A DNA stretch of 32,000 nt from assembly GCF_000012285.1 (NCBI RefSeq), contig NC_007181.1:900001-932000 (forward strand). The letters are read 5' to 3'. This document shows, one piece after another, positions 3,047 through 23,490 of the stretch. The notes under the pieces are model-generated. The model saw only the letters and a program-made list of their open reading frames with translations. It was not told the DNA's origin and ran no database searches. This DNA comes from Sulfolobus acidocaldarius DSM 639 (GTDB taxonomy: Archaea; Thermoproteota; Thermoprotei_A; Sulfolobales; Sulfolobaceae). Position 1 is the first letter of the stretch, and each line of letters starts with the position of its first letter. The translations under genes were made by a program, and so were the position numbers.

Positions 3047-4438
3047 ATGAGAACAAAAGGAGATTTTCTAAAATCTCTACGAGATGGAAGGAAAGTTTTC
3101 TATAGGGGAAAACCTGTAGAAGATATAACCGCTCATCCTATACTGAGCATAGCTGCAATTCATGCTTCAAAACTTTTCGAATATTCCGATAGAATGTATG
3201 AAGATCCCTCATTAGGTAAGGTAAGTAAATTCTTCAAGAAACCTACATCAACTCAGGACTTACTAGAGAGACATAAATTAATTTACGATACGACAATGTA
3301 CTGTAACGGAATATTCAACATATCGCAAGCAATAGGGAGTGACGCAATTTTCGCTCTTACCATCACCGCGAGACAATTGGACAGAAAATATGGTACAGAC
3401 TACACCAAAAGGATACAGAAATACCACGAATATGTTACTAAGAATGATTTGACAATAGCTACAGCTCAGACTGATGTGAAGGGAGACAGAAGCAAAAGAC
3501 CTTCAGAACAAGCAGATCCAGATATGTACGTGAGAATAGTAGATGTCAAGAGTGATGGTATTGTGGTAAGGGGAGCTAAGGCACATACAACTCAATCTGC
3601 TGTGTCAGACGAGATAATCGTGATACCAACTAGGGCTATGAAGGATAGCGATAAGGACTATGCCGTAGCCTTTGCGGTCCCTGCAAATGCACCTGGGTTG
3701 AAACTTTATGTGAGACCAATTGACGAAATTGAGGGAAACACTTCAGCAGTCTTAAGTAAGAAGGACTATGAACTTGAGACCATAACGGTTTTCGATAACG
3801 TGTTTGTCCCGTGGGATAGAGTCTTCCTCTTTAAGGAATATGATTACGCGGGAAATATCGCCATGTTATTTGCAACATATCACAGATTTACTGCATTATC
3901 CTACAGGTCAGCACTAATTAACTTATTCCTAGGCTCAGCTAGGGTTATGGCTAAGGCTAATGGAATAGAGAACGAAAAACATGTGAGAGATGATGTAGTG
4001 GATTTGATACTCTACAAGGAAATACTTAGAAGTACTGCTATAACTTCTGCCATAAGCCCTGTAATGCTAGAGGGTGTAGCAGTTCCAAACCCACTGTATG
4101 TCAATGTAGGAAAACTATACTCTAATATGCACTTCCATGACGTAATTAAGGATTTAGTTGACGTTGCAGGAGGTATTATTGCAACACTTCCATCACAAGA
4201 AGACTTCGATAGTGAAGAGGGTAAGACGATTATCAAGTACTTGAGAGGAGCTGTAGATGGAGAAGAGAGAGTAAAGATATTGAAGTTGGTTAAAGAGCTT
4301 GCAGCCAGTCCTGTAGCGGGTTATCTATTAACTGCAATGGTTCATGCGGAGGGATCAATAGAGGCTAGTAAGATAGAGTTGTTCAGAAGTTATGATTATA
4401 GGGAAGCAGAAAGTTTAATCAAAAAAATTATTGGTTAA
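3047..4438 (+). CDS. 4-hydroxybutyryl-CoA dehydratase/vinylacetyl-CoA isomerase (AbfD)/HpaB-family flavoprotein paralog lacking the Fe-S cluster cysteines
   Basis: TDVKGDRSKRPSEQADPDMYVRIV is the signature stretch of the AbfD family. The whole 463-aa protein has a single Cys (MYCNG), so the CxxxC...H...C [4Fe-4S] ligand set cannot be formed. Confidence 0.7.
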   Translation: MRTKGDFLKSLRDGRKVFYRGKPVEDITAHPILSIAAIHASKLFEYSDRMYEDPSLGKVSKFFKKPTSTQDLLERHKLIYDTTMYCNGIFNISQAIGSDAIFALTITARQLDRKYGTDYTKRIQKYHEYVTKNDLTIATAQTDVKGDRSKRPSEQADPDMYVRIVDVKSDGIVVRGAKAHTTQSAVSDEIIVIPTRAMKDSDKDYAVAFAVPANAPGLKLYVRPIDEIEGNTSAVLSKKDYELETITVFDNVFVPWDRVFLFKEYDYAGNIAMLFATYHRFTALSYRSALINLFLGSARVMAKANGIENEKHVRDDVVDLILYKEILRSTAITSAISPVMLEGVAVPNPLYVNVGKLYSNMHFHDVIKDLVDVAGGIIATLPSQEDFDSEEGKTIIKYLRGAVDGEERVKILKLVKELAASPVAGYLLTAMVHAEGSIEASKIELFRSYDYREAESLIKKIIG

Positions 4439-6266: not shown

Positions 6267-7436
6267 CTACCTAATTTGTGTCTTATAAACCCTTGAGTAT
6301 ATTGCTGATACCACAGGAATGGATACATCAACTTTACAGTGGGAACCATTGTAGACGTCCAGATGACCATATTTCTCTAAAAGTATCATACTATAAGGAC
6401 GATTTCCAGGGAAGGGATTATTGCTCAGCCTACCTGCTGATAATCCAAAGCCACTTATTATATCTAGGATAGGTAAGGATATTTTGCTGTACATGTTGTC
6501 AAAATCATACTTTAGATAGGGGCATTCCTTCCAGTCTAACATTGTCTGAGTTTCAAGGTATATCCTTATTGGCCAATATCTGTCAAAGGTGGACATTGTA
6601 TGTACTAACACTCTCGGATCATTATACCCTGCATATACGTTTGTTAGTAATCCCGGACCCCAACCGCTATAGAGAGTAAAAGTTGCCCATTCCAATATGT
6701 TATTCCATTTTTCACCTGTAATTGGATTGATTCTAGGTTCAAGAGGCTCTCCCGTTACAGGGTTTGTCGGTGGTGCATTAGGATTCTTATCGATATATTT
6801 AAAGAGGAAGAGAGCCCCCTTAGTACCTCCAACTTCCATTGCCCAACTCTTCGTATTCTTGATTTTCTCTAAGAGACCGTCAAAATCAAGAGAATTAGTA
6901 GGTTGCCTTAGAATAGGTCCTCCATCGAGTAAAATTAGACTCTCCAAGTCCTCAGGGAATAGAGTTGCAAAATTTACTGTAGCTAATCCTCCAAAACTTT
7001 CACCAGCTAAGAAGACCCTTTTAAAGGAAGATATCTCTTTAATAAACTCTACAACCTCCTTAATGTCATTTATCCATTGCTCCCATCCCCAATCAACCAT
7101 AAAGCCGAATTCACTCGGATCTTTCTCAGGAGACAGGAAGTGAGTCCTATAATCCATTAAATAAACATCAATGCATCTATTAGCCCAAAAGAAAGGCTCA
7201 TCAATGTCTTCATTTCTCTTCCAATCATCATCTACCGTATTAGCAGATAACTGTTCACCACTACTCCATGTTCCTGGGAGTATTAGGAGAGAGGCTATGG
7301 GTTTACATTCCTCCTTGATTAGCCTATGAACACCAATAATCCCTGAGGGTGGCGTTTTAGACTCCTTCGTCCAATAATAGTGTTTTAAACTAGGATAATC
7401 TTTACATTTGTACTCTTGTCTCAAATTCCATGTCAT
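6267..7436 (-). CDS. Alpha/beta hydrolase, lipase-like
   Basis: VFLAGESFGG is a GxSxG nucleophile elbow. Preceded by LILPGTWSSG. 389 aa, no obvious signal peptide. Sits next to the esterase and divergent from the TetR regulator. Confidence 0.65.
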   Translation of the reverse strand: MTWNLRQEYKCKDYPSLKHYYWTKESKTPPSGIIGVHRLIKEECKPIASLLILPGTWSSGEQLSANTVDDDWKRNEDIDEPFFWANRCIDVYLMDYRTHFLSPEKDPSEFGFMVDWGWEQWINDIKEVVEFIKEISSFKRVFLAGESFGGLATVNFATLFPEDLESLILLDGGPILRQPTNSLDFDGLLEKIKNTKSWAMEVGGTKGALFLFKYIDKNPNAPPTNPVTGEPLEPRINPITGEKWNNILEWATFTLYSGWGPGLLTNVYAGYNDPRVLVHTMSTFDRYWPIRIYLETQTMLDWKECPYLKYDFDNMYSKISLPILDIISGFGLSAGRLSNNPFPGNRPYSMILLEKYGHLDVYNGSHCKVDVSIPVVSAIYSRVYKTQIR

Positions 7437-7474
7437 AATTAAATTATGCTCCGGCTTGTTTATATTTCTTGATT

Positions 7475-7602
7475 AAAATTAAACTATTTGATTTATCAAA
7501 TGTATTTGTGTAAATAATTTTTCTTCACTCCAAATCCTATTAGGAAAGCTGACACTGAACCGACCTTTTAACTACAATGATAGTCGACTCAAAAATCAAG
7601 TA
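7475..7602 (+). repeat. Copy A of a duplicated promoter-operator module (its last 40 bp, 7563..7602, are identical to 8022..8061)
   Basis: Three collinear identical blocks are shared with copy B: aaaattaaactatttg (7475-7490 / 7918-7933), aatgtatttgtgtaaataat (7499-7518 / 7952-7971), and the 40-mer accttttaactacaatgatagtcgactcaaaaatcaagta (7563-7602 / 8022-8061). Confidence 0.9.
7582..7601 (+). promoter_or_regulatory. Candidate TetR operator, copy A: AGTCGACT palindrome plus ACTCAAAAATCAAGT box
   Basis: Perfect 8-bp palindrome AGTCGACT at 7582-7589, overlapping an ACT-N9-AGT dyad at 7587-7601. Further (A)GTCGA(C) cores lie at 7609-7614 and 7788-7794. Confidence 0.45.
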
Positions 7603-7917
7603 TAATATAGTCGAAATATGCCCTCTTGAATAAAACCATGAAATATAAATGAGTCTATTCTGATCTGATAAAGTTCAAACGTGCCATATTTCCTCGCGGA
7701 TTTGCTTGCTGTATTACACGTAAGCTTTTCACTTTAAATGGCAAATGATGTTGCTAGCTTCTTCCAGGTCTTCTCCTTTTAAAGAGAAGTCGACGTAGAG
7801 CCTCTAAATAAGCCTTTTGACATTAAATTATAAAATGTGGAGAGCCTCGCCCTTTAGAGTGTGGAAGAAGTCAGTGGCACAGTTCTCTTCGTTTAAGCTT
7901 TTTTGTATCTCTTCATC

Positions 7918-8061
7918 AAAATTAAACTATTTGTTTTATTCATTATATCTTAATGTATTTGTGTAAATAATCTTCTTTATTCTAATCAATAAAATTATCG
8001 GAGAAGTTTATTATCGAGTTTACCTTTTAACTACAATGATAGTCGACTCAAAAATCAAGTA
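7918..8061 (+). repeat. Copy B of the duplicated promoter-operator module, ending 11 nt before the TetR regulator start codon
   Basis: Same three identical blocks as copy A, offset by 459 bp for the 40-mer. Contains TTTTAA (8025-8030) as a candidate TATA box and the AGTCGACT palindrome. Confidence 0.9.
8041..8060 (+). promoter_or_regulatory. Candidate autoregulatory TetR operator in the regulator promoter: AGTCGACT palindrome plus ACTCAAAAATCAAGT box
   Basis: Palindrome at 8041-8048 and ACT-N9-AGT dyad at 8046-8060. They lie between the TATA-like TTTTAA (8025-8030) and the start codon (8073/8076), a position suited to promoter occlusion. The SD-like GGTGGTG lies just downstream. Confidence 0.55.
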
Positions 8062-8072
8062 GTAAAGGTGGT

Positions 8073-8663
8073 GTGATGTATAGGGCTCCTAAAACAGAAA
8101 AGGGAAAGGAATCACTAAATAAAATACTTGATGCCTCTGTTGAGCTAATTGCTGATAAGGGTTTTCTAAGCACTAGTATAAACGATATTACAAGTAAGGC
8201 TGGAGTTGCTTATGGTCTTTTCTACTTTTACTTTAAGAGTAAGCATGACATTTTAGATGAGATAATAAGGCAGTTTAACAGAAATATGAGATATTATTTG
8301 AAAACATATACACAGAACCTAGACAGTAGGATTGATGTGGAAAAAGTAGGAATGAAGAAATTCTTGGAGTGGATGAACGAGAACAAGAAGTATTATAAGA
8401 TATTCATTGAAACACAAGTCCATAGACCTGATATATATAAGTGGCACTTCATGAAGCTAGCCGAGAGATATACTACGGGTCTTTCTGAGGCAATGAGGAG
8501 GGGTGAGATAATAAATGTAGACCCTGAGTTACTGTCTTACGTTTTAATCGGTATAGCCCATATGCTTGGTAAAAGGTACGTCTTGTGGAGTAACTCTGGG
8601 CTTACATTAAAACAACAGAGAGACTTGGACTTAATTATAGAAAATATGTTAACACCAAGGTAA
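8073..8663 (+). CDS. fadR: TetR-family transcriptional regulator (acyl-CoA-responsive FadR-like)
   Basis: The N-terminal HTH is typical of TetR (LDASVELIADKGFLSTSINDITSKAGVAYGLFYFYFKSKHDIL), followed by a ~140-aa ligand domain. The gene is embedded in a beta-oxidation cluster. The start is GTG 8073 or the adjacent ATG 8076. Confidence 0.8.
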   Translation: MMYRAPKTEKGKESLNKILDASVELIADKGFLSTSINDITSKAGVAYGLFYFYFKSKHDILDEIIRQFNRNMRYYLKTYTQNLDSRIDVEKVGMKKFLEWMNENKKYYKIFIETQVHRPDIYKWHFMKLAERYTTGLSEAMRRGEIINVDPELLSYVLIGIAHMLGKRYVLWSNSGLTLKQQRDLDLIIENMLTPR

Positions 8664-8849: not shown

Positions 8850-9971
8850 ATGGGCGAAGAAGATAAAGAGTTAGAGGAGTATAGGAATAAGGTCAGAGAG
8901 TGGATTCGCAAGAACGTACCTGAAGAGATAAAGGAAAAGGGAGATATGGCACCAGTTGAGGTCTTAAAGAGCTGGCAGAGGAAAATATATGAGGCAGGCT
9001 ATCTTGGTGTCTCATGGCCTAAGGAATATGGTGGTTGGGGAGATAGTCCCATAAAGGAGATTATTGTTAGAGAGGAATTCGCTAAAGCAGGAGTTCCTTA
9101 CGCTACGATAGGTTTAGGAGTATCGGTCACAGGTCCTGCAATTTTGAACAACGGAAATGAAGAGCAGAAGAAAAAACACATAAGGAGAATCCTTACAGCG
9201 GAAGATATATGGTGTCAAGGGTTTTCTGAACCCCACGCAGGATCAGATTTAGCTTCAATCAGAACCAAGATAGAGGATAAGGGAGATCATTATGAAGTAA
9301 ATGGGCAGAAGATATGGAGTAGTTATGCCCATCTGGCTAATTACTGTCTCCTATTAGGGAGGACAGGAGACCCCTCTGAAAGGCACAAAGGGCTGACAAT
9401 ACTCATAGTAGATATGAGAAGCGAGGGGATAAAAGTTAGCCCTATTAAGCAGATAACTGGAAGATCAGAGTTTAACACGGTATACTTCAATCAAGTAAAG
9501 GTGCCTAAGGAAAATGTTGTAGGTAAGGTAGGAGAAGGATGGAGAGTGGCTATGTCCACACTGAATTACGAAAGACTAAACATAGGTACAATACTATTTG
9601 GAGTCGAGAGGATAATCAGAGATCTTGTGAACACTGGTTATAAGGGAGAATCCTTAATTAATACAGCTGAAGATATAATTGCGCTGAAAGCCTTTTACAA
9701 GAGAATACTAGAGAGAATGAAAAAGGGATATATAGCTGGTCCAGAGGCTGCCATGATCAAGTTAGTAGCTTCTGAGTCAATGCAAAAAGTCTATGAGAGT
9801 GCATTCAATACCATGGGTCCGGAAGCTCTAGTGGTAGAACGTAAACCTGGTTTCAGACCTGAAATAGTTTATGGACTATTAGCTTCAAGGTCAATTACTA
9901 TTGCAGGAGGAACGTCGGAAATATTAAGAAACCTGCTTGGAGAGGTCGTACTAGGATTACCTAAAGGATAA
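8850..9971 (+). CDS. Acyl-CoA dehydrogenase (FadE-like subfamily with IAGGTSE in place of the YEGT catalytic-Glu motif)
   Basis: FSEPHAGSD is the FAD/substrate motif (TEPxAGSD-like). GEGWRVAMSTLNYER and C-terminal IAGGTSEILRN are also present. 373 aa. Confidence 0.8.
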   Translation: MGEEDKELEEYRNKVREWIRKNVPEEIKEKGDMAPVEVLKSWQRKIYEAGYLGVSWPKEYGGWGDSPIKEIIVREEFAKAGVPYATIGLGVSVTGPAILNNGNEEQKKKHIRRILTAEDIWCQGFSEPHAGSDLASIRTKIEDKGDHYEVNGQKIWSSYAHLANYCLLLGRTGDPSERHKGLTILIVDMRSEGIKVSPIKQITGRSEFNTVYFNQVKVPKENVVGKVGEGWRVAMSTLNYERLNIGTILFGVERIIRDLVNTGYKGESLINTAEDIIALKAFYKRILERMKKGYIAGPEAAMIKLVASESMQKVYESAFNTMGPEALVVERKPGFRPEIVYGLLASRSITIAGGTSEILRNLLGEVVLGLPKG

Positions 9972-10064: not shown

Positions 10065-12056
10065 TTATTCTCCTTTGAACTGTGGCTTTCTCCTCTCTAG
10101 GAAAGCCCTTACTCCTTCTTTTACATCCTCTGTTGTGAATAACAGTCCGAATAAGGCAGACTCTAATTCCTGTCCAGTCCATATATTAGCCTCATAACCT
10201 AACTCCACAGCTAATTTGGCAGCTAATAATGATAACGGCGACTTTTCTGCAATCTTCAATGCCACTCTCCTAACTTCCTCCTCAAATTTGTTTGCCGGAA
10301 CGACCTGATCAACTAGTCCCATTTTATATGCCTCTTCCGCAGGGATCATATCACCGGTGTAAATAAGTAACTTCGCTCTTCCTTTACCTATTAGTCTTGG
10401 AAGTCTTTGTGTACCACCGGCCCCTGGAATTATTCCGATATTGATCTCAGGCTGACCTAACTGGGCTAAATTAGAGGCTATTCTGATGTCGCACGCCATT
10501 GCCAACTCAAGTCCTCCGCCTAGGGCGAACCCATTTATAGCAGCGATAACTGGCTTAGTATAAAGTTGAATCTTGTAGATGACGTTTTTCATATACCTGT
10601 ATCTCACAACATCAATTGGTCTCAGTGTAGTAAATGACGTTACGTCAGCACCTGCAGAAAATGCTCTACCATTACCAGTGATAATTACCACTCGGACGTC
10701 ATTATTGAACTCCAACTCGTCCAAAACCTTGTCCAGTTCACCCATTAATTCTTGGCTTAACGCGTTAAGTCTCTCTGGTCTATTTAAGACTATCCAGGCT
10801 AAGGGAGGCTCAACTCTAAGTATTAAGGTTTTTAGTGTCTTTTGTTGAATCTTCCCGTACTCAAAGAATCCTGAGCCTGACTTCATTCCCACTTTGCCTT
10901 GAGAAACCATCTCTGTCAACAGGGGATCTGGATCGAATGAACTTATTCCTGTTAATTTCTTTAACTCTGACAATGAATTCACAATGTTATCTATTCCCAC
11001 CTCATCGGCTAATTTCAGTATACCTTTCTGGAATCCTAGACCAAGGACTGTACCTAAGTCTACATCCTCCTTACTGGCTATATTCTCCCTCACTAATCTA
11101 GCGGCTTCATTTACTGCTGGCGCAATAATTAAAGCTGGGTTTAACTTCTCTGCCAACTCCTTAGGTAATTCAGGCTTGACGTACTTACCTGGACCTGGAT
11201 AGGTGTAGAATCCCTTTCCACTTTTAACACCCAACTCATTGTTCTTGAACTTTTCAACTATTAGTGAGCAGATTGGTATATCGTCTTTCACTCCCAGTTC
11301 TTCCCTTGATTTTGAAATGTAATATGCAACATCTATACCAGTGTAATCTAGGAGTTCAAAAACTCCCATTGGGAAGCCTAGTTTGTATCTTGCAACAGCA
11401 TCGACTTCTTTTATGTCAGCAAGCTTCTTCTCAACTACTATACACGATGCGATATTTATTCCTCCTAAAATCCTGTTTACAACGTATCCAGGAATATCTT
11501 TGTTTATCATTATAGGCTGCTTCCCTAATTTCTTTGCTAACTCATATGTCACCTTTGCGGTCTCGTCGCTGGTTTTGTCGCCCTTCATTACTTCAACTAG
11601 GGGCATAAGTGCAGGGGGATTAAAGTAATGCATTCCAACTACCTTATCAGGTCTCTTTGTAGCCTCAGCTATTTTGGAAACTGGTAGACTACTGGTATTA
11701 GTTGCTAGTATTGCATGAGGTGGTAATAGCTCGTCTAATTTTGCAAATGTCTGTCTCTTTACATCTATTTTCTCTGTTATCGCTTCAATGGAAAAATCAG
11801 CATCACTGACAGTCTTATCTAGTCCAACTACAGGTCTTATTCTCTGCAGTACTGTCTCTACGTCCTCCTTTATTGTCCCTCTTTCCTTTAACTTTGTAAG
11901 ACTCCATTTGACTTTGTCCATTGCACTATTTAATATATCTTGAGAGACATCACTTAGATATACTTGATAACCTGCTATGGCTGCTAGTTCCGCTATACCG
12001 TGACCCATAGTTCCTGCTCCGATGACGAGTATTTTCTTAATATCTTCTACTTTCAT
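10065..12056 (-). CDS. Bifunctional 3-hydroxyacyl-CoA dehydrogenase (N-terminal) / enoyl-CoA hydratase (C-terminal)
   Basis: N-terminal Rossmann motif VIGAGTMGHGIAELAA followed by the HCDH C-terminal domain. The C-terminal ~250 aa are a crotonase fold (ITGNGRAFSAGADV, GGGLELAMACD). 663 aa. Confidence 0.9.
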   Translation of the reverse strand: MKVEDIKKILVIGAGTMGHGIAELAAIAGYQVYLSDVSQDILNSAMDKVKWSLTKLKERGTIKEDVETVLQRIRPVVGLDKTVSDADFSIEAITEKIDVKRQTFAKLDELLPPHAILATNTSSLPVSKIAEATKRPDKVVGMHYFNPPALMPLVEVMKGDKTSDETAKVTYELAKKLGKQPIMINKDIPGYVVNRILGGINIASCIVVEKKLADIKEVDAVARYKLGFPMGVFELLDYTGIDVAYYISKSREELGVKDDIPICSLIVEKFKNNELGVKSGKGFYTYPGPGKYVKPELPKELAEKLNPALIIAPAVNEAARLVRENIASKEDVDLGTVLGLGFQKGILKLADEVGIDNIVNSLSELKKLTGISSFDPDPLLTEMVSQGKVGMKSGSGFFEYGKIQQKTLKTLILRVEPPLAWIVLNRPERLNALSQELMGELDKVLDELEFNNDVRVVIITGNGRAFSAGADVTSFTTLRPIDVVRYRYMKNVIYKIQLYTKPVIAAINGFALGGGLELAMACDIRIASNLAQLGQPEINIGIIPGAGGTQRLPRLIGKGRAKLLIYTGDMIPAEEAYKMGLVDQVVPANKFEEEVRRVALKIAEKSPLSLLAAKLAVELGYEANIWTGQELESALFGLLFTTEDVKEGVRAFLERRKPQFKGE

Positions 12057-13159: not shown

Positions 13160-14812
13160 ATGATAAAAGGAATTCCCTCCACAGTAAATGATGAATGGCA
13201 ACTGAACCTACATAAAGTAATCGAATACGCCTCTAAAGTCCACGGAGAAAGAGAAATTATTTCAGATAGAAGATTTCAAGGGGGAGTACTCCACAACTTA
13301 AATTATAGAAAAATATTCCATAGAATATCTAGCTTTACAAACTCCCTTGAAAAGGAACTTAATACAAAAGCTGGTGATATTATAGGTATATTGGGTTGGA
13401 ACGATCACAGGTATTTTGAGTCATTCTTCACTGTCCCGTCTCTAGGAGCAGTGTTACTGGAATTAAACATCAGACTTCACCCTGCAGACTTACTATACAT
13501 CTTAAAACACACTAGGGCAAAAGGTCTATTGGTTGACGATTCTTTACTTCCATTGGCTGAGGCTCTATCTAAGGAGTATAATTTTGACTACACTATCATC
13601 ATGAGTGATAAACCTTTTGAGGAAATCAAGACGAATATCAGGAATGCATTTGGTTATGAAGAATTAGTGAAGTCCGGCTCACCCAACAGAAAATTTGAGG
13701 AGGTAGATGAAAAGTCTACGGCATTTGCTGCATTTACTACCGGGACTACGGGTCTACCAAAGGGTGTATTTTACTCCCATAGATCTGTGGTACTCCATGC
13801 GTTAAACATTTCTAGAGATCTTAAACCATCAGATGTGATATTACAAGCTGTTCCGTTCTTCCATGTCCATGGTTGGGGTACTCAGTTTGCTGGTGCAATT
13901 ACTGGTTGTAAGCAGATATTTCCTGGTAGACCAACTGTTGACTCCATGGTTGAGCACATTTTAAATCATAAAGTTACGAGAACGGCAGCAGTACCTACTG
14001 TAGTTCTAGAATTATTAAGAAGAATAGAGACGATGGATCCTAAACCGAATTTAGCTGGCTTAAGACTAGGTATTGGGGGAGCGGAGCCGCCATCAGCTCT
14101 AGTTTCTGCCTTGGCGAAACACGGTATTGAGACAGGACAAGGATATGGTGCTACTGAGACAGGACCGGTAGTGGTAGCTGCGGTAGCTAAGCCCGAATTC
14201 GAGCAATTACCTGTAGAGGAGAAGTTCAAGAGGCTAAAACAAGGGTTAATACTATTTGGTGTCGAGGTAAAAGTAGTTGATCCTGTATCAGGAGAAGAGT
14301 TACCTTGGGATGGTAAGAGTGTGGGTGAAATTTGGTTTAGGGGACCATGGATCGCTAGGTCGTACTATAATGACCCGAGGAGTGCAGAGTCTTTTACTAG
14401 TGATGGGTGGTGGAAAAGTAAAGATTTAGGTGTTATTGATGAATTGGGCTATGTTAAATTAGTTGATAGGTTAAAAGACGTAGTTAAAAGCGGTGGTGAG
14501 TGGATTAGTAGTATTGATTTGGAGAACTTTTTGATGGCTCATCCTTATGTTAGAGAGGCTAGTGTTGTTGGTGTTCCTCACCCTAAGTGGGGTGAGAGAC
14601 CATTGGCTGTGGTATCACTTAAACCTGAATATCAGAGTAAGGACAAGGAAGAAGTAAAGAAGTCACTACTTGATCACTTATCTAAGAGGTTTGCCAAGTG
14701 GCAGTTACCGGATGATATTGTCTTTGTTGATGAGATACCTAAGACTAGTGTTGGTAAGTTCAGGAAGGAGGAGTTGAGAAATAAGTATAAGGACTATTAC
14801 ATGAAACAATAG
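13160..14812 (+). CDS. AMP-dependent acyl-CoA synthetase (fatty-acid-CoA ligase), paralog A
   Basis: FTTGTTGLPKGV is the AMP-binding motif I. GYGATETGP and the C-terminal SVGKFRK lysine loop are present. 550 aa. About 85% aa identity (by eye) to 29964..31616. Confidence 0.85.
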   Translation: MIKGIPSTVNDEWQLNLHKVIEYASKVHGEREIISDRRFQGGVLHNLNYRKIFHRISSFTNSLEKELNTKAGDIIGILGWNDHRYFESFFTVPSLGAVLLELNIRLHPADLLYILKHTRAKGLLVDDSLLPLAEALSKEYNFDYTIIMSDKPFEEIKTNIRNAFGYEELVKSGSPNRKFEEVDEKSTAFAAFTTGTTGLPKGVFYSHRSVVLHALNISRDLKPSDVILQAVPFFHVHGWGTQFAGAITGCKQIFPGRPTVDSMVEHILNHKVTRTAAVPTVVLELLRRIETMDPKPNLAGLRLGIGGAEPPSALVSALAKHGIETGQGYGATETGPVVVAAVAKPEFEQLPVEEKFKRLKQGLILFGVEVKVVDPVSGEELPWDGKSVGEIWFRGPWIARSYYNDPRSAESFTSDGWWKSKDLGVIDELGYVKLVDRLKDVVKSGGEWISSIDLENFLMAHPYVREASVVGVPHPKWGERPLAVVSLKPEYQSKDKEEVKKSLLDHLSKRFAKWQLPDDIVFVDEIPKTSVGKFRKEELRNKYKDYYMKQ

Positions 14813-15036: not shown

Positions 15037-15963
15037 ATGGTATTAAATTTCGAAGAATACAAACATACGTATTTTAAGTCGATAAAGAAAGGAGGGATTG
15101 ATTGGTCTCTATTTCCTATGAAGTTATATCAGCTGGGCAAGAAACTTTTTTGGGATCCATCGACAATTGATCTTACCCAAGACAGAGCAGACTGGGACAA
15201 GTTAAGGGATATAGATAAGTTTCTTATGGTCAATGTAACATCTAAGTTCGGTGCAGGCGAAGAGGCAGTAGCCCTTGATCTACACCCCTTGATTGTCACA
15301 CTTGTTAAAGAAGGCAGAGTAGAGGAGGTCATGTATTTAGAGCAGTTTATTTTTGAGGAAGCGAAACATGTAGAAGCTTTTAGGAGGTTCTTGGACGCAG
15401 TAGGTGTTAAGGAGGACTTGGTGGAATTAACTAAGGATGTTTCACCAAACTACGCTAAGATATTCTATGAGGAGCTCCCAAAGGCAATGTGGAATTTGAA
15501 TAGAGACCCGTCCCCTGAGAACCAAGTTAGAGCAGCTGTAACATACAATCTTGTGGTAGAAGGGGTCGCTGCTGAAGGCGGATACAATATTTTCAAATAC
15601 ATAACTAGGACATTTAATATATTTCCAGGACTAGCTAAAATGGTGAATTATATAGCTACTGACGAGTCAAGGCATATAGCCTTTGGGACATATCTCATTG
15701 CAAGGCTCATAAAAGAAGGAGGAGAGAGTGTATACAAGGCTGCAATGGAGCACATTAACTACTTGGGACCATACGCTGTGGGAATATTTTCAGAGCCTAA
15801 TGTACCACAAGGTGTAGAGATACCTCTGAAGCTTAACCCAGAAGTCACCGTTGAGTACGCTAAAAAACTATTGAATGTGAGAATTCAGGCTATACAGAGG
15901 GCTAAGGAATTGAAGTTAGAGATGCTTACACCAAAGGACTTGGATGTGATAGAGAGTTTATAA
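15037..15963 (+). CDS. R2-like ligand-binding oxidase (ribonucleotide reductase R2-like di-metal carboxylate protein)
   Basis: Two ExxH metal motifs (EEAKHVEAF and TDESRHIAFG) plus additional Glu ligands (GEEAV, VVEGVAAEG). Phe sits at the position of the R2 radical Tyr (HVEAF). N-terminal FWDPSTIDL..D..DW is R2-like. 308 aa. It is embedded among acyl-CoA enzymes rather than next to an RNR large subunit. Confidence 0.7.
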   Translation: MVLNFEEYKHTYFKSIKKGGIDWSLFPMKLYQLGKKLFWDPSTIDLTQDRADWDKLRDIDKFLMVNVTSKFGAGEEAVALDLHPLIVTLVKEGRVEEVMYLEQFIFEEAKHVEAFRRFLDAVGVKEDLVELTKDVSPNYAKIFYEELPKAMWNLNRDPSPENQVRAAVTYNLVVEGVAAEGGYNIFKYITRTFNIFPGLAKMVNYIATDESRHIAFGTYLIARLIKEGGESVYKAAMEHINYLGPYAVGIFSEPNVPQGVEIPLKLNPEVTVEYAKKLLNVRIQAIQRAKELKLEMLTPKDLDVIESL

Positions 15964-16871
15964 TGGTGAACCCCATGTTACTGGACCCCACATTCGAAAT
16001 GAGTGATGACGTAAAACTAATTTTAGGAAGTATTAAGGAACTGTTGGATTCTAAGTGGGACACAAAGAAGTTTAGGAGTGTTTTAGAGGGAAATAAAGAA
16101 CTCACTGAGCAGTTGTGGAAGGACATAATAAAACTGGAGATTCTACCATATATTTCCAATTCACCATTGAGAGATGCTGTAATAATAAATGAGTTAATTG
16201 GTAGTAAACTTCTGCCAGGTATAATAGCTAGTAGTGTAGTTGCCTCTAGGGGAATAAAGAGTAAGGATATACTGGATAAGCTCTTCTCAGGTGAAGTTAA
16301 GATAGCGGTCTCTGACTCCAACTATGTCCCAGGTGCAGATCAAGCAGATCTAATCCTCATTGATAACACAATAGTAAAGAGGAAAGATGCGGAATTGAAA
16401 AGTTTCAACTCTCTAGATAATTCGATGAAAATAAATGAAGTTAAGCATAATGCTGGCGAAAATGTACAAGTTAACAACGCTGAAATATCTATACTTTTTG
16501 CATCGCAGATGTTAGGACATGGACAGGAAGTGTTAAACATGGCTGTAAAGTATAGCAAAGAGAGGATAGCTTTCGGTAAGCCCATTGGTTCTTATCAAGC
16601 TATTAAACACAGAGTTGTAAATGACGCTGTTGATGTGGAGCTGGTTCGGTCTATAATATTGGAAGCATCTGATAACATTAAGTATGTATGGTTAGCGAAG
16701 GAGTTAGCTAATAAAAAGATACCAAAAGTGATTTTAAGCGGTATTCAAGTACATGGTGGGATTGGCTTCACTGACGATATGGACATACACTTACACCTAA
16801 AGAGGAGCCTTACCCTTAGCAAAATTTATAACGGAAAAGTGGACATTTCAGAGTTTCTGCAATCTTTATAA
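15963..16871 (+). CDS. Degenerate acyl-CoA dehydrogenase-like protein (shortened middle domain, catalytic Glu replaced)
   Basis: The C-terminal ACAD domain is clear (LGHGQEVLNMAVKYSKERIAFGKPIGSYQAIKHR, VHGGIGFT). However, IYEG is IYNG, the TEPxAGSD motif is absent (SDSNYVPGADQAD), and the protein has only 302 aa. The start ATG overlaps the R2lox stop (TAATG). Confidence 0.65.
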   Translation: MVNPMLLDPTFEMSDDVKLILGSIKELLDSKWDTKKFRSVLEGNKELTEQLWKDIIKLEILPYISNSPLRDAVIINELIGSKLLPGIIASSVVASRGIKSKDILDKLFSGEVKIAVSDSNYVPGADQADLILIDNTIVKRKDAELKSFNSLDNSMKINEVKHNAGENVQVNNAEISILFASQMLGHGQEVLNMAVKYSKERIAFGKPIGSYQAIKHRVVNDAVDVELVRSIILEASDNIKYVWLAKELANKKIPKVILSGIQVHGGIGFTDDMDIHLHLKRSLTLSKIYNGKVDISEFLQSL

Positions 16872-16906
16872 TCTCCCGGTTTAAATTATTATAAGAGGTT
16901 AAAACA

Positions 16907-18094
16907 ATGCTACAAGAAGTATATTTGGTAGATTTCGCTAGAACTCCTTTCACAAGGTTTACTAGAAAGGAACCACAAAAAGATCCTTTTTATAATTTGA
17001 GACCAGAGGAGTTAGCAGGCATAGTTATAAACAGGTTAATAGAAAAGAACGGGATAAACCCTAGAGAAATAGAGGAGATAGTTACAGGATGTGCTCTGCA
17101 AGTAGGTGAACAGTGGAGCTTCGGAGGAAGACATGAAGTATTTGCGTCCAGATTACCTTATACCATACCATCAATGGCAGTGGATAGACAGTGTGCTTCC
17201 TCAATAACAACTGTTGCAATAGGAGCAATGGAAGTAGCTACGGGTATGGCAGACATCGTATTAGCGGGAGGAGTAGAGAAAATGTCAAAAACTCCCATGT
17301 TTGACAACCCACACATAGAGCCTAACATGGCTTTTCTAACTGACCCAAAATACGCTGAGTATGACCTCACAACTGGTTATGTTATGGGTTTAACAGCAGA
17401 GAGACTGGCTGAGGAGGCAAAGATATCCAGGGAAGAGATGGACAGATGGTCACTAAGAAGTCATCAGATGGCTACTAAAGCCATTCAAGAGGGCTATTTC
17501 AAAGACGAGATAATACCCTTCGAAACTGAAGTGGAAGGAAAGAAAATTACGCTGACTACTGATCAGTCTGTGAGACCAGACACAAGTTTAGAGAAGTTAT
17601 CTCAATTACCTCCAGCATTTAGACCAAATGGTACAATTACAGCAGGCAATTCAGCTCCTCTGAACTCCGGTTCAGCATATGTACTACTCATGTCTAAGAA
17701 CGCATTAAAGAGGTATGGATTAACACCAATGGCTAAAATCAGGAGTTTCGGATTTGCAGGAGTTCCTCCAGCGGTAATGGGCAAAGGTCCAGTCCCCTCC
17801 TCTAAAAAGGCTTTAGAAAAGGCTAACTTGAATGTAAAGGACATCTCGTTGTGGGAAATAAATGAAGCTTTCGCTGTAGTAGTACTAAACGCTATCAAGG
17901 AATTGGGATTAGATGAGAGCACAGTTAATAAGAGAGGTGGAGCTATAGCCATAGGTCACCCATTAGGTGCAACAGGAGCTAGAATAGTTGGGACATTAGC
18001 TAGGCAACTATTGATTGAAGGAAAGGACTACGGTGTTGCTACGCTCTGTGTAGGAGGAGGACAGGGAGGAGCAATTGTAGTGGAAAGAGTATAA
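16907..18094 (+). CDS. Acetyl-CoA C-acyltransferase (3-ketoacyl-CoA thiolase, FadA/thiolase-I/II type)
   Basis: VDRQCASS is the active-site Cys. NEAFA, GHPLGATGAR and CVGGGQG are thiolase signatures. 395 aa. Confidence 0.9.
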   Translation: MLQEVYLVDFARTPFTRFTRKEPQKDPFYNLRPEELAGIVINRLIEKNGINPREIEEIVTGCALQVGEQWSFGGRHEVFASRLPYTIPSMAVDRQCASSITTVAIGAMEVATGMADIVLAGGVEKMSKTPMFDNPHIEPNMAFLTDPKYAEYDLTTGYVMGLTAERLAEEAKISREEMDRWSLRSHQMATKAIQEGYFKDEIIPFETEVEGKKITLTTDQSVRPDTSLEKLSQLPPAFRPNGTITAGNSAPLNSGSAYVLLMSKNALKRYGLTPMAKIRSFGFAGVPPAVMGKGPVPSSKKALEKANLNVKDISLWEINEAFAVVVLNAIKELGLDESTVNKRGGAIAIGHPLGATGARIVGTLARQLLIEGKDYGVATLCVGGGQGGAIVVERV

Positions 18095-23049: not shown

Positions 23050-23490
23050 ATGGAGATGAGTGGGAAGTTTCTTGTAGAAAAATCGGAGGAAAAGGTCAAG
23101 GAGTTATTGACAGACCCAAAAATGTTCTCCCAGTGCTTACCTGGAATTCAGAATTACGAGATATCTGGCGAATCATTTAAGGCTGTCTTCAAAATCGATG
23201 TAAGTGAGATGAGAATCCCACATATTACAACACTTACAGCATCCATTAACGCTACAATTACCACCGAGAGTAACAATCAGATACATATAAAAGGTAATGG
23301 TAGGTCTGCAGGAGTTAGTATAAAGATGGATATAGTTTTGGATTTAGGGTCTGAAGAAGGTAAAACTGCAGTAAAGTGGACAGCTATCTTAGATATGGGT
23401 ATGTTAACTAAGCTACTGGGCGAGTCCAATATAAGACAGATTGCAGAGTCTAATGTGAAAAGTATAATCTCCTGTCTTTCAAGAGTTTAA
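23050..23490 (+). CDS. CoxG-like SRPBCC-fold protein, probably a partner of the G3P dehydrogenase
   Basis: MSGKFLVEKSEEKVKELLTDPKMFSQCLPGIQNYE matches the CoxG-family N-terminal pattern (xDPxxxxxCxPG). It starts 2 nt after the G3PDH stop. 146 aa. Confidence 0.6.
   Translation: MEMSGKFLVEKSEEKVKELLTDPKMFSQCLPGIQNYEISGESFKAVFKIDVSEMRIPHITTLTASINATITTESNNQIHIKGNGRSAGVSIKMDIVLDLGSEEGKTAVKWTAILDMGMLTKLLGESNIRQIAESNVKSIISCLSRV

Follow-up and report, generated by a model that had tools for sequence, protein, structure and literature searches.

R2-like ligand-binding oxidases (R2lox) have been known since 2009 and several of their crystal structures are available, yet we know of no accepted physiological reaction for these proteins. 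The question is raised in a concrete form by a 32-kb stretch of the Sulfolobus acidocaldarius DSM 639 genome (contig NC_007181.1, positions 900,001 to 932,000; ~39% G+C; hereafter the window), in which the gene for an R2lox protein is followed closely by genes for a short protein with an acyl-CoA dehydrogenase (ACAD) fold and for a beta-ketothiolase. What might an R2lox do in this company? A preliminary description of the window, made from the sequence alone, had suggested an oxidative step on an acyl chain that feeds beta-oxidation. The explanation at which we arrive, and which as a whole we favour by a small measure, is that the three genes (Saci_1112, Saci_1113 and Saci_1114) form a unit controlled by the regulator FadR, that Saci_1113 would make up an ACAD together with Saci_1108, encoded in the same window, and that the R2lox protein (SaR2loxII) would oxidise a chain that then enters beta-oxidation.

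The identity of the first protein is clear. Saci_1112 is 100% identical over 308 residues to the SaR2loxII protein of Protein Data Bank (PDB) entry 7QBK (WP_011277966), its gene is already named R2lox in the NCBI annotation, and the NCBIfam model NF006198, ‘R2-like ligand-binding oxidase’, matches it over its full length (1-308) with 605.4 bits against a cut-off of 274. By comparison, the best model for a ribonucleotide reductase (RNR) beta subunit reaches 67.9 bits against a cut-off of 237, and the cut-offs of all RNR models lie at 237 or above. This profile search therefore bears out the assignment to R2lox rather than to RNR R2 made in the preliminary description, as does the sequence itself for the two ExxH motifs reported there, E108-A-K-H111 (nt 15358-15369) and E210-S-R-H213 (nt 15664-15675), and for the Phe at the radical-Tyr position. 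This residue, Phe115 (nt 15379-15381), stands four residues past H111, a site that we take to be the radical-Tyr position of class Ia R2 by reference to H118 and Y122 of E. coli R2. The six metal ligands (E75, E108, H111, E175, E210 and H213) are invariant in an alignment of 20 R2lox sequences, and V78, Y170 and F115 are invariant or nearly so across these 20 diverse proteins. The ligands map onto those given for GkR2loxI of Geobacillus kaustophilus (PMC10867098), and V78 and Y170, both present in Saci_1112, are the residues named as the cross-link pair in the SaR2loxII structure paper (PMC9314684).

These data also dispose of an older reading, in which Saci_1112 is the small subunit of a ribonucleotide reductase and Saci_1113 a decaying ACAD pseudogene. 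Pfam places Saci_1112 only in the Ribonuc_red_sm family and sees a single ACAD domain in Saci_1113, and the 2019 RNA-seq study labels the two genes ‘RNR subunit beta’ and ‘ACAD’ (PMC6449355). The family-model scores and the identity to PDB 7QBK, however, refute an RNR identity, the radical Tyr is replaced by Phe, and no RNR large subunit was found among window open reading frames (ORFs) of at least 100 aa. The pseudogene was likewise rejected as a candidate, since Saci_1113 is an intact gene whose family has 24 invariant positions across 25 members, and since its product gives a confident model of a full ACAD fold. Taken together, this older reading is left with a negligible probability.

The window is the FadR-regulated lipid and fatty-acid cluster Saci_1103-1126 of S. 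acidocaldarius. Its gene content matches that of the published cluster, which identifies the trio as Saci_1112, Saci_1113 and Saci_1114, in agreement with the gene names that Wang et al. 2019 give in their RNA-seq table (PMC6449355). FadR keeps all 23 genes of the cluster repressed until acyl-CoA releases it, and a fadR deletion grows faster on hexanoate (PMC6449355). In the published RNA-seq data for this deletion the log2 fold changes of the three genes are 0.58, 0.62 and 0.62, and in an iModulon analysis of 95 RNA-seq profiles Saci_1103-1122, except fadR, fall into one module, the FadR iModulon, which is active when fadR is knocked out and when nutrients are limiting. The joint derepression and the shared module uphold the earlier proposal that the genomic context ties this R2lox to acyl-CoA metabolism.

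The three ORFs were recovered on the forward strand exactly where they had first been described, at 15037-15963 (308 aa), 15963-16871 (302 aa) and 16907-18094 (395 aa), and with R2lox at their head and short spacers between them they do make up a compact co-directional unit. The one-base TAATG overlap reported between the first two genes is present (stop TAA at 15961-15963, ATG at 15963), but it is probably not used. ATG 15963 is disfavoured because 24 of 24 aligned homologues begin at the equivalent of ATG 15975, because the NCBI protein has 298 aa, and because of where a GGTGA Shine-Dalgarno core is positioned; ATG 15975 is thus probably the true start, so that the spacing between the R2lox gene and Saci_1113 becomes 11 nt rather than -1, which is still tight. 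The corresponding spacers in orthologues are 5 nt in Saccharolobus solfataricus and 4 nt in Sulfolobus tengchongensis.

Promoter and Shine-Dalgarno motifs were read by eye, a sigma-70 scanner being unsuited to an archaeon. The R2lox gene is separated from the acyl-CoA synthetase gene upstream (Saci_1111) by a 224-nt AT-rich spacer, with T-rich tracts after the stop of the latter at 14812. Under the promoter spacing rule for the leaderless transcripts of Sulfolobus, the TATA-like box in front of R2lox implies a transcript that probably starts at the R2lox ATG itself. Several features speak for a single operon: the common strand, spacers of 11 (or -1) and 35 nt, equal fold changes in the fadR deletion, and Shine-Dalgarno motifs before the second and third genes. 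Against these stand the mean RNA-seq counts (~428, 410 and 1193 for Saci_1112, Saci_1113 and Saci_1114), which put the thiolase at ~3 times the level of the genes upstream of it, together with a TATA-like tract in front of the thiolase gene; the two could leave room for a second promoter at 16880-16894. We nevertheless infer that the three genes probably belong to a single acyl-CoA-inducible expression unit within the FadR regulon, read from one leaderless transcript.

The thiolase is the best understood member of the trio. Saci_1114 matches Pfam Thiolase_N and Thiolase_C with 223 and 155 bits and model NF005033 with 737.6 bits against a cut-off of 511, and it has been characterised in vitro as a beta-oxidation thiolase (bioRxiv 10.1101/2024.07.05.601840). 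The 35-nt gap that precedes it (16872-16906) and its identity as a thiolase are as first described, whereas the label ‘FadA-type’ is only loosely right, since the E. coli-type FadA model scores 348, below its cut-off of 519. Purified Saci_1114 was used together with Saci_1109 for the in vitro reconstitution of beta-oxidation by Schmerling et al. (bioRxiv 10.1101/2024.07.05.601840).

The role of Saci_1113 is less obvious. ‘Degenerate ACAD’, as it had been called, is accurate as a description, in that Pfam recognises the C-terminal ACAD domain only (51 bits) and finds no match to Acyl-CoA_dh_M or Acyl-CoA_dh_N. It is not accurate if decay is meant, because the protein belongs to a conserved family of 250-310 aa that is restricted to Sulfolobales and bears the hallmarks of a beta subunit. 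Two motifs survive in Saci_1113, RIAFGKPIGSYQ (nt 16563-16598) and QVHGGIGF (nt 16746-16769); R-x-AFGKPIGSYQ and QVHGGIGF do not vary among 25 sequences of the family, and in the alignment they fall on RxxFG and QxxGGxG of canonical ACADs, segments that reach across the dimer to the FAD (flavin adenine dinucleotide) of the neighbouring subunit. The catalytic YEG, by contrast, has become YNG (nt 16827-16835), the position of the catalytic Glu of the isovaleryl-CoA dehydrogenase (IVD) type is not conserved in the family, nor is that of the medium-chain type, and the region of the middle domain that carries the xSEPxAGSD flavin signature is deleted in the alignment. An AlphaFold 2 model (pLDDT 87.5, pTM 0.88) has an ACAD-like layout that is complete, with the middle sheet shortened and the middle domain consisting of ~50 residues of short strands only. 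As a homotetramer-type ACAD, Saci_1113 would therefore appear catalytically incompetent, having neither the catalytic Glu nor a middle domain with the flavin signature. The closest resemblances are to heteromeric enzymes. The top PDB fold match of the model is 6wy8, the heteromeric steroid ACAD Tcur3481-3483 (TM 0.78), and the top NCBIfam match is IpdE2, over the full length, with 106 bits against a cut-off of 450; the model for the PimD small subunit reaches 39.5 bits against a cut-off of 652.7.

A candidate catalytic partner is encoded within the same cluster. The top NCBIfam match of Saci_1108 is the pimeloyl-CoA dehydrogenase large subunit PimC (224 bits against a cut-off of 624). Its N-terminal and middle domains are intact, with FSEPHAGSD as the flavin signature and LNYER providing an IVD-type Glu, and it is without the C-terminal RxxFG and QxHGGxG motifs, a pattern shared by four archaeal relatives. 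In the alignments the motifs retained and lost by Saci_1108 and Saci_1113 are mirror images of one another. In an archaeal metagenome contig (L167) a gene of the Saci_1108 type is followed after 6 nt by one of the Saci_1113 type, and in six of ten archaeal contexts the beta gene has an alpha-type ACAD gene no more than 8 kb away. A scan of metagenome contigs with the beta-family alignment gave no new archaeal contexts; a same-strand adjacent gene of the Saci_1108 type was found in 21 of the 34 evaluable bacterial loci that it retrieved with beta motifs, motifs that also match full-length bacterial ACADs. S. acidocaldarius itself has a second such pair, in which a beta gene (P0051, 267 aa; L001, 6001-6804, +) and an alpha gene (362 aa; 7266-8354, -) flank a gene for a MaoC hydratase, which brings the genome to two beta genes and at least two alpha-type ACAD genes (Saci_1108 and the paralogue at L001). 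The complementary loss of motifs and the pairing of the genes in relatives lead us to read Saci_1113 as most likely a non-catalytic, FAD-sharing ACAD subunit, with Saci_1108 as its catalytic partner, and the two complementary gene pairs of S. acidocaldarius suggest that alpha2beta2 ACADs exist in archaea.

How specific is the association of R2lox with this subunit? The trio occurs in the same order (arrangement A: R2loxII, beta, Saci_1114-type thiolase) in the window, in S. solfataricus and in S. tengchongensis, the proteins of the latter two being 70-75% identical to those of the window. A second order (arrangement B: acyl-CoA synthetase, SCPx-type thiolase, DUF35, beta, R2lox) was found in one metagenome-assembled genome of the Sulfolobaceae and one hot-spring metagenome contig, where R2lox and beta are each ~50% identical to the proteins of the window. 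The R2lox-beta pair stays adjacent and co-oriented through this change of order, the two genes being 4-11 nt apart in arrangement A and 34-38 nt apart in arrangement B, while the type of thiolase and the other neighbours differ. In the two arrangement B contigs an ORF of 266-271 aa, convergent to R2lox and immediately downstream of it (L170, 8941-9756, -; L173, 5659-6459, -), is 55% identical between the contigs; no Pfam family matches it, and neither the window nor the other archaeal loci have a homologue.

The persistence of this pair invites another interpretation of Saci_1113, as a dedicated partner of R2loxII rather than, or besides, an ACAD subunit: a dead acyl-CoA-binding scaffold that feeds the R2lox tunnel, the substrate of R2lox then being an acyl-CoA. 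We regard this as unlikely, even though the two genes are translationally tight in both arrangements and their adjacency and co-orientation survive the swap in order at ~50% divergence, which the adjacency of beta and alpha genes does not. R2lox is also paired with, or fused to, the lipid carrier SCP2 elsewhere, which suggests that a substrate-delivery partner is needed: three metagenomic R2lox proteins (P0211, P0228 and P0229; 439-444 aa) have an N-terminal SCP2-like domain, and a free-standing SCP2 gene beside R2lox (L060, 6502-6966; Pfam SCP2, 31.5 bits) encodes a protein 41% identical to the fused domain. The authors of the SaR2loxII structure, moreover, named a search for partners, together with work in the native host, as the way forward (PMC9314684). 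On the other side, five of the ten archaeal contexts have beta-family genes without any R2lox (L001, L165, L166, L167 and L175), the conserved residues of the beta family are contacts to the FAD of a neighbouring ACAD subunit with no obvious use in an R2lox complex, and two beta genes with at least two alpha-type genes in S. acidocaldarius fit a 1:1 pairing of ACAD subunits. Random placement of R2lox among ~23 genes would also give a second adjacency to beta in ~2/23 of cases, so that the recurrence is suggestive only. A bolder combination of the two roles, which we think quite improbable, would have Saci_1113, perhaps still docked to the alpha ACAD, present an acyl-CoA chain to R2loxII; the substrates of R2lox enzymes would in that case be CoA thioesters and not free fatty acids, and the O2-dependent step would open blocked (branched, isoprenoid-derived) chains to archaeal beta-oxidation.

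In the explanation that we prefer, acyl-CoA would release FadR and so permit transcription, probably leaderless, from the R2lox ATG, the two downstream genes being translated from their own Shine-Dalgarno sites. R2loxII, with an Mn/Fe site and O2, would oxidise, and most likely hydroxylate, a long aliphatic chain, and the product would then be processed as an acyl-CoA by the beta-oxidation set of the cluster. Saci_1113 would be no enzyme alone but would serve as beta subunit in an alpha2beta2 acyl-CoA dehydrogenase, supplying the C-terminal residues that hold the ADP-ribose of an FAD seated in the alpha subunit, Saci_1108, which would carry the catalytic Glu and the sites for the isoalloxazine and the substrate. 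Saci_1114 would carry out the thiolytic last step of beta-oxidation, as it does in vitro in the hands of others. For R2loxII the oxidation of an aliphatic chain is inferred from co-regulation, from conserved adjacency and from the contexts of R2lox elsewhere. The features on which this account draws are collected in Table 1.

Table 1. Positions of the genes and putative signals of the window that are discussed in the text.
Feature	Position (nt)	Strand	Description	Basis
Saci_1112 (SaR2loxII)	15037..15963	+	R2-like ligand-binding oxidase, 308 aa	PDB 7QBK identity; NF006198; alignment
Saci_1113	15975..16871	+	Short ACAD-fold protein, 298 aa (302 aa from ATG 15963); proposed non-catalytic beta subunit	Pfam, NCBIfam, alignments, AlphaFold 2
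Saci_1114	16907..18094	+	Beta-ketothiolase, 395 aa; Cys96, His351, Cys381	Pfam Thiolase_N, Thiolase_C; NF005033
Saci_1108	8850..9971	+	Alpha-type ACAD, 373 aa; proposed catalytic partner of Saci_1113	NCBIfam, alignments
TATA-like box TTTTTAA	15007..15013	+	Centre ~27 nt upstream of the R2lox ATG	Read from sequence
GGTGA	15965..15969	+	Shine-Dalgarno core, 5 nt upstream of ATG 15975	Read from sequence
AT-rich tract TTTAAATTATTATAA	16880..16894	+	~25 nt upstream of the thiolase ATG; candidate internal TATA box	
GAGGT	16895..16899	+	Shine-Dalgarno-like motif, 7 nt upstream of the thiolase ATG	Read from sequence
Saci_1107 (FadR)	8073..8663	+	TetR-family acyl-CoA-responsive repressor of the whole cluster	Pfam TetR_N; PMC6449355
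Saci_1109	10065..12056	-	Fusion of 3-hydroxyacyl-CoA dehydrogenase and enoyl-CoA hydratase (HCDH/ECH); middle steps of beta-oxidation	Pfam; characterised, bioRxiv 10.1101/2024.07.05.601840
Saci_1111	13160..14812	+	Acyl-CoA synthetase directly upstream of R2lox; separate transcription unit	Pfam AMP-binding

Several observations weigh against this explanation. Recombinant SaR2loxII is largely free of metal and ligand and without the Tyr-Val cross-link, Mn and Fe were refined in the crystal at an occupancy of 0.35 with no clear fatty-acid density (PMC9314684), and the protein is not known to have an enzymatic activity. The activity claimed for GkR2loxI is the disappearance of alkane in crude lysates without identification of a product (PMC10867098). 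The changes of the trio in the fadR deletion are small (~1.5-fold). Saci_1108 and Saci_1113 lie 6 kb apart, and in Saccharolobus and S. tengchongensis the beta gene has no alpha-type gene within 8-9 kb. In contrast to the actinobacterial clusters described below, the window ORFs of at least 100 aa include no ferredoxin, reductase or aldehyde dehydrogenase, so that no electron donor is evident. Components of an archaeal fatty-acid synthase are likewise encoded in the cluster, which makes a catabolic direction less than certain. An ACAD or thiolase gene within 7 kb of R2lox was found, finally, at none of 80 bacterial loci; these are the matches listed from a genome contig scan with an R2lox alignment, a biased bacterial sample (mostly Chloroflexota, Gemmatimonadota, Armatimonadota and Acidobacteriota, with some Bacillota) that holds no Sulfolobales and no Actinobacteria. 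Nor are there fatty-acid genes near the S. acidocaldarius paralogue SaR2loxI, whose locus (L168; 8001-8945, 11306-13780, 14265-15578) has malate synthase and isocitrate lyase genes 2.4-5.3 kb away. These are enzymes of the glyoxylate shunt, needed for growth on acetyl-CoA.

The absence of ACAD and thiolase genes from the bacterial matches listed and the unlinked SaR2loxI imply that the linkage is specific to a lineage and not a property of the R2lox family. The survey of gene neighbourhoods thus gave a divided answer to the preliminary description: linkage recurs in two gene orders of the Sulfolobaceae, in Geobacillus and in the fadE4-TetR-R2lox order of Mycobacterium tuberculosis, and is missing from the bacterial loci listed and from SaR2loxI. 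Clustering the neighbours of the bacterial loci listed gave no dominant family (the largest, in 10 of 80, reflects mostly synteny within Anaerolineales), and acyl-CoA synthetase genes were found in four, TetR in two, aldehyde dehydrogenase in four and SCP2 in seven. It may therefore be asked whether R2loxII is simply a passenger in a large, often rearranged lipid supercluster under FadR, without a specific tie to the ACAD subunit or the thiolase. Besides the survey, the fluid gene order of Sulfolobales, seen in the differing contexts, would fit such co-location, as would the fact that FadR represses all 23 genes, so that co-regulation is not specific to the trio. We give this reading a rather low probability, as the spacers are very short and the genes coupled through Shine-Dalgarno motifs, as the adjacency is kept in two arrangements across ~50% divergence, and as R2lox is found repeatedly and independently with genes that form or use acyl-CoA in three other phyla.

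The fatty-acid synthase parts proposed within the cluster (Saci_1104, Saci_1115 and Saci_1120/1121; bioRxiv 10.1101/2024.07.05.601840) raise a further alternative, in which R2loxII would serve the biosynthesis or modification of lipids by hydroxylating or desaturating acyl chains made by this synthase. In Saccharolobus and S. tengchongensis a gene for a medium-chain dehydrogenase/reductase (MDR) and a Saci_1104-like gene for a short-chain dehydrogenase/reductase (SDR) come directly before R2lox and a Saci_1115-like MDR gene after it, and in arrangement B R2lox comes after an SCPx-type thiolase and DUF35. Acyl desaturases are found among the related ferritin-like enzymes. Hydroxy fatty acids, furthermore, co-purify with R2lox proteins (PMC9314684). 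SaR2loxII itself, however, bound no fatty acid (PMC9314684), its immediate operon partners are a degradative thiolase and an ACAD subunit, the fact that acyl-CoA lifts the repression by FadR and that a fadR deletion grows faster on hexanoate speaks for catabolism, and the actinobacterial and Geobacillus contexts are catabolic. A biosynthetic role thus seems to us improbable, and the FadR-controlled feeding of beta-oxidation remains the reading that we prefer.

The wider window encodes, in order, the TetR regulator, two ACADs, three acyl-CoA synthetases and the HCDH/ECH fusion, two esterases, a glycerol kinase, a glycerol-3-phosphate dehydrogenase, a thiolase/DUF35 pair, an MDR dehydrogenase and a peroxiredoxin. 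Two further genes were noted in passing. At the cluster edge lies a gene of the HpaB family, with an ACAD-like fold (window 3047-4438, +; L003, 1550-2941; L171, 4420-5811), which is of the flavin monooxygenase or 4-hydroxybutyryl-CoA dehydratase type and is kept in all three Sulfolobaceae genomes with the R2loxII trio. A gene for a CoxG-family protein (23050-23490, +) begins 2 nt after the glycerol-3-phosphate dehydrogenase gene. The CoxG fold is of a type that binds hydrophobic ligands; in a window without an SCP2 gene, this protein might act as a lipid carrier.

Much of this locus is already in print, and every one of its genes carries an annotation. The protein, its crystal structure, the cluster, its regulator and, in a supplementary table, the co-regulation have been published, and the general idea is not new either, a link from R2lox to beta-oxidation having been proposed for Geobacillus in 2024 (PMC10867098), in the only paper that a search of the searchable literature for R2lox together with acyl-CoA dehydrogenase returned. 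Published studies of Sulfolobus have employed Saci_1123 as the ACAD and do not discuss Saci_1112 or Saci_1113, and the main text of the biochemical preprint mentions neither Saci_1108 nor Saci_1113 (bioRxiv 10.1101/2024.07.05.601840). In the searchable literature we found no cross-reference between SaR2loxII and the FadR regulon, no report of the R2lox-beta pairing in two arrangements and no reading of Saci_1108 and Saci_1113 as an archaeal heteromeric ACAD. The locus is therefore a testable, if not entirely new, lead to the function of R2lox. It offers a native and tractable host, a regulator, FadR, that responds to a known inducer, characterised enzymes on its flanks, and a specific candidate partner for R2lox in Saci_1113 together with Saci_1108. 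That pair, ignored in the biochemical reconstruction of beta-oxidation in Sulfolobus, also suggests that alpha2beta2 ACADs, so far known mainly from bacterial steroid and dicarboxylate catabolism, may occur in archaeal fatty-acid clusters as well.

How does this unit compare with systems already described? Two bodies of work concern the very same genes. The FadR regulon of Wang et al. 2019 (PMC6449355) and the beta-oxidation reconstituted in the preprint of Schmerling et al. 2024 belong to the same locus, Saci_1112 and Saci_1113 being listed in it as derepressed, and SaR2loxII of Diamanti et al. 2022 (PMC9314684) is the same protein as Saci_1112; a text search of the latter paper for operon, acyl-CoA, thiolase and gene cluster showed it to be silent on gene neighbours and on the FadR regulon.

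Saci_1108 and Saci_1113 may be set beside the known alpha2beta2 ACADs, namely ChsE4-ChsE5 (FadE26-27), ChsE1-ChsE2, IpdE1-IpdE2 and Tcur3481-3483, and beside PimC/PimD. In ChsE4-ChsE5 the alpha subunit binds the isoalloxazine and the substrate and carries the catalytic Glu, and the beta subunit binds the ADP-ribose of FAD (PMC11153573), a division of labour that matches the motif pattern of the archaeal pair. The likeness extends to the best family matches (IpdE2 for Saci_1113, the PimC large subunit for Saci_1108) and to the fold of 6wy8. With scores so far below the cut-offs (106 against 450 and 224 against 624), however, the archaeal proteins are not orthologues of IpdE2 and PimC; the archaeal beta subunit is shorter, with a reduced middle domain, the alpha and beta genes are not adjacent in the window, and the known substrates are CoA esters of steroids or dicarboxylates, which are not expected in the Sulfolobus cluster.

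Among other R2lox proteins the nearest parallel is GkR2loxI (GK2771), which was argued in 2024 from its gene context to be an alkane hydroxylase that feeds beta-oxidation, with the support that alkane was lost in lysates and that a double mutant in the ligands had a partial effect (PMC10867098). In the Geobacillus genome the order is ACAD, ECH, SDR and thiolase genes, and, further on, genes for alcohol dehydrogenase, aldehyde dehydrogenase and R2lox, so that in both systems an O2-dependent oxidation of a chain would lead into beta-oxidation. The two proteins are, however, only ~37% identical, and the Geobacillus R2lox gene comes last, after the alcohol and aldehyde dehydrogenase genes, whereas that of Sulfolobus comes first, before the ACAD subunit and the thiolase, with no such dehydrogenase pair adjoining it. 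The ACAD of the Geobacillus cluster (L172, 1-1196, +) has the flavin signature and a YEG-type FEG and is without RxxFG and QxxGGxG, and is in this respect alpha-like, from which it follows that the published pair GK2780/GK2781 may also be heteromeric.

The actinobacterial clusters share with the window control of the TetR type and genes of acyl-CoA metabolism, including fatty-acid-CoA ligases and, in some, an ACAD. On Rhodococcus plasmids (R. opacus pROB01, L176, 5825-13243; L178; L179) the genes for an NDMA-type alcohol dehydrogenase, R2lox, an FAD-oxidoreductase, a ferredoxin, an aldehyde dehydrogenase, SCP2 and a fatty-acid-CoA ligase lie on one strand or in permuted order, the full layout of a multicomponent hydrocarbon hydroxylase pathway. 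On M. intracellulare pMyong1 (L177, 6199-11369) a TetR gene directly upstream of R2lox is joined by a small hypothetical gene and genes for a CoA ligase acting on long-chain fatty acids and for an alcohol dehydrogenase, with a P450 and an ACAD 3 kb upstream, and in M. tuberculosis the order is Rv0231 (fadE4), Rv0232 (TetR) and Rv0233 (R2lox). These two clusters are without the ferredoxin/reductase pair. The window differs from the Rhodococcus layout in having no ferredoxin, reductase, aldehyde dehydrogenase or SCP2 gene adjoining R2lox, and its regulator is 6 kb off. An R2lox match on a Natronorubrum plasmid lay among unrelated genes and was uninformative for the published haloarchaeal context with ferredoxin and SCP. 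Taken together, the contexts point to a common theme, in which R2lox would oxidise a carrier-delivered hydrophobic chain and the product would become an acyl-CoA, and the Sulfolobus unit, with its putative ACAD subunit and its thiolase, fits the downstream end of that theme.

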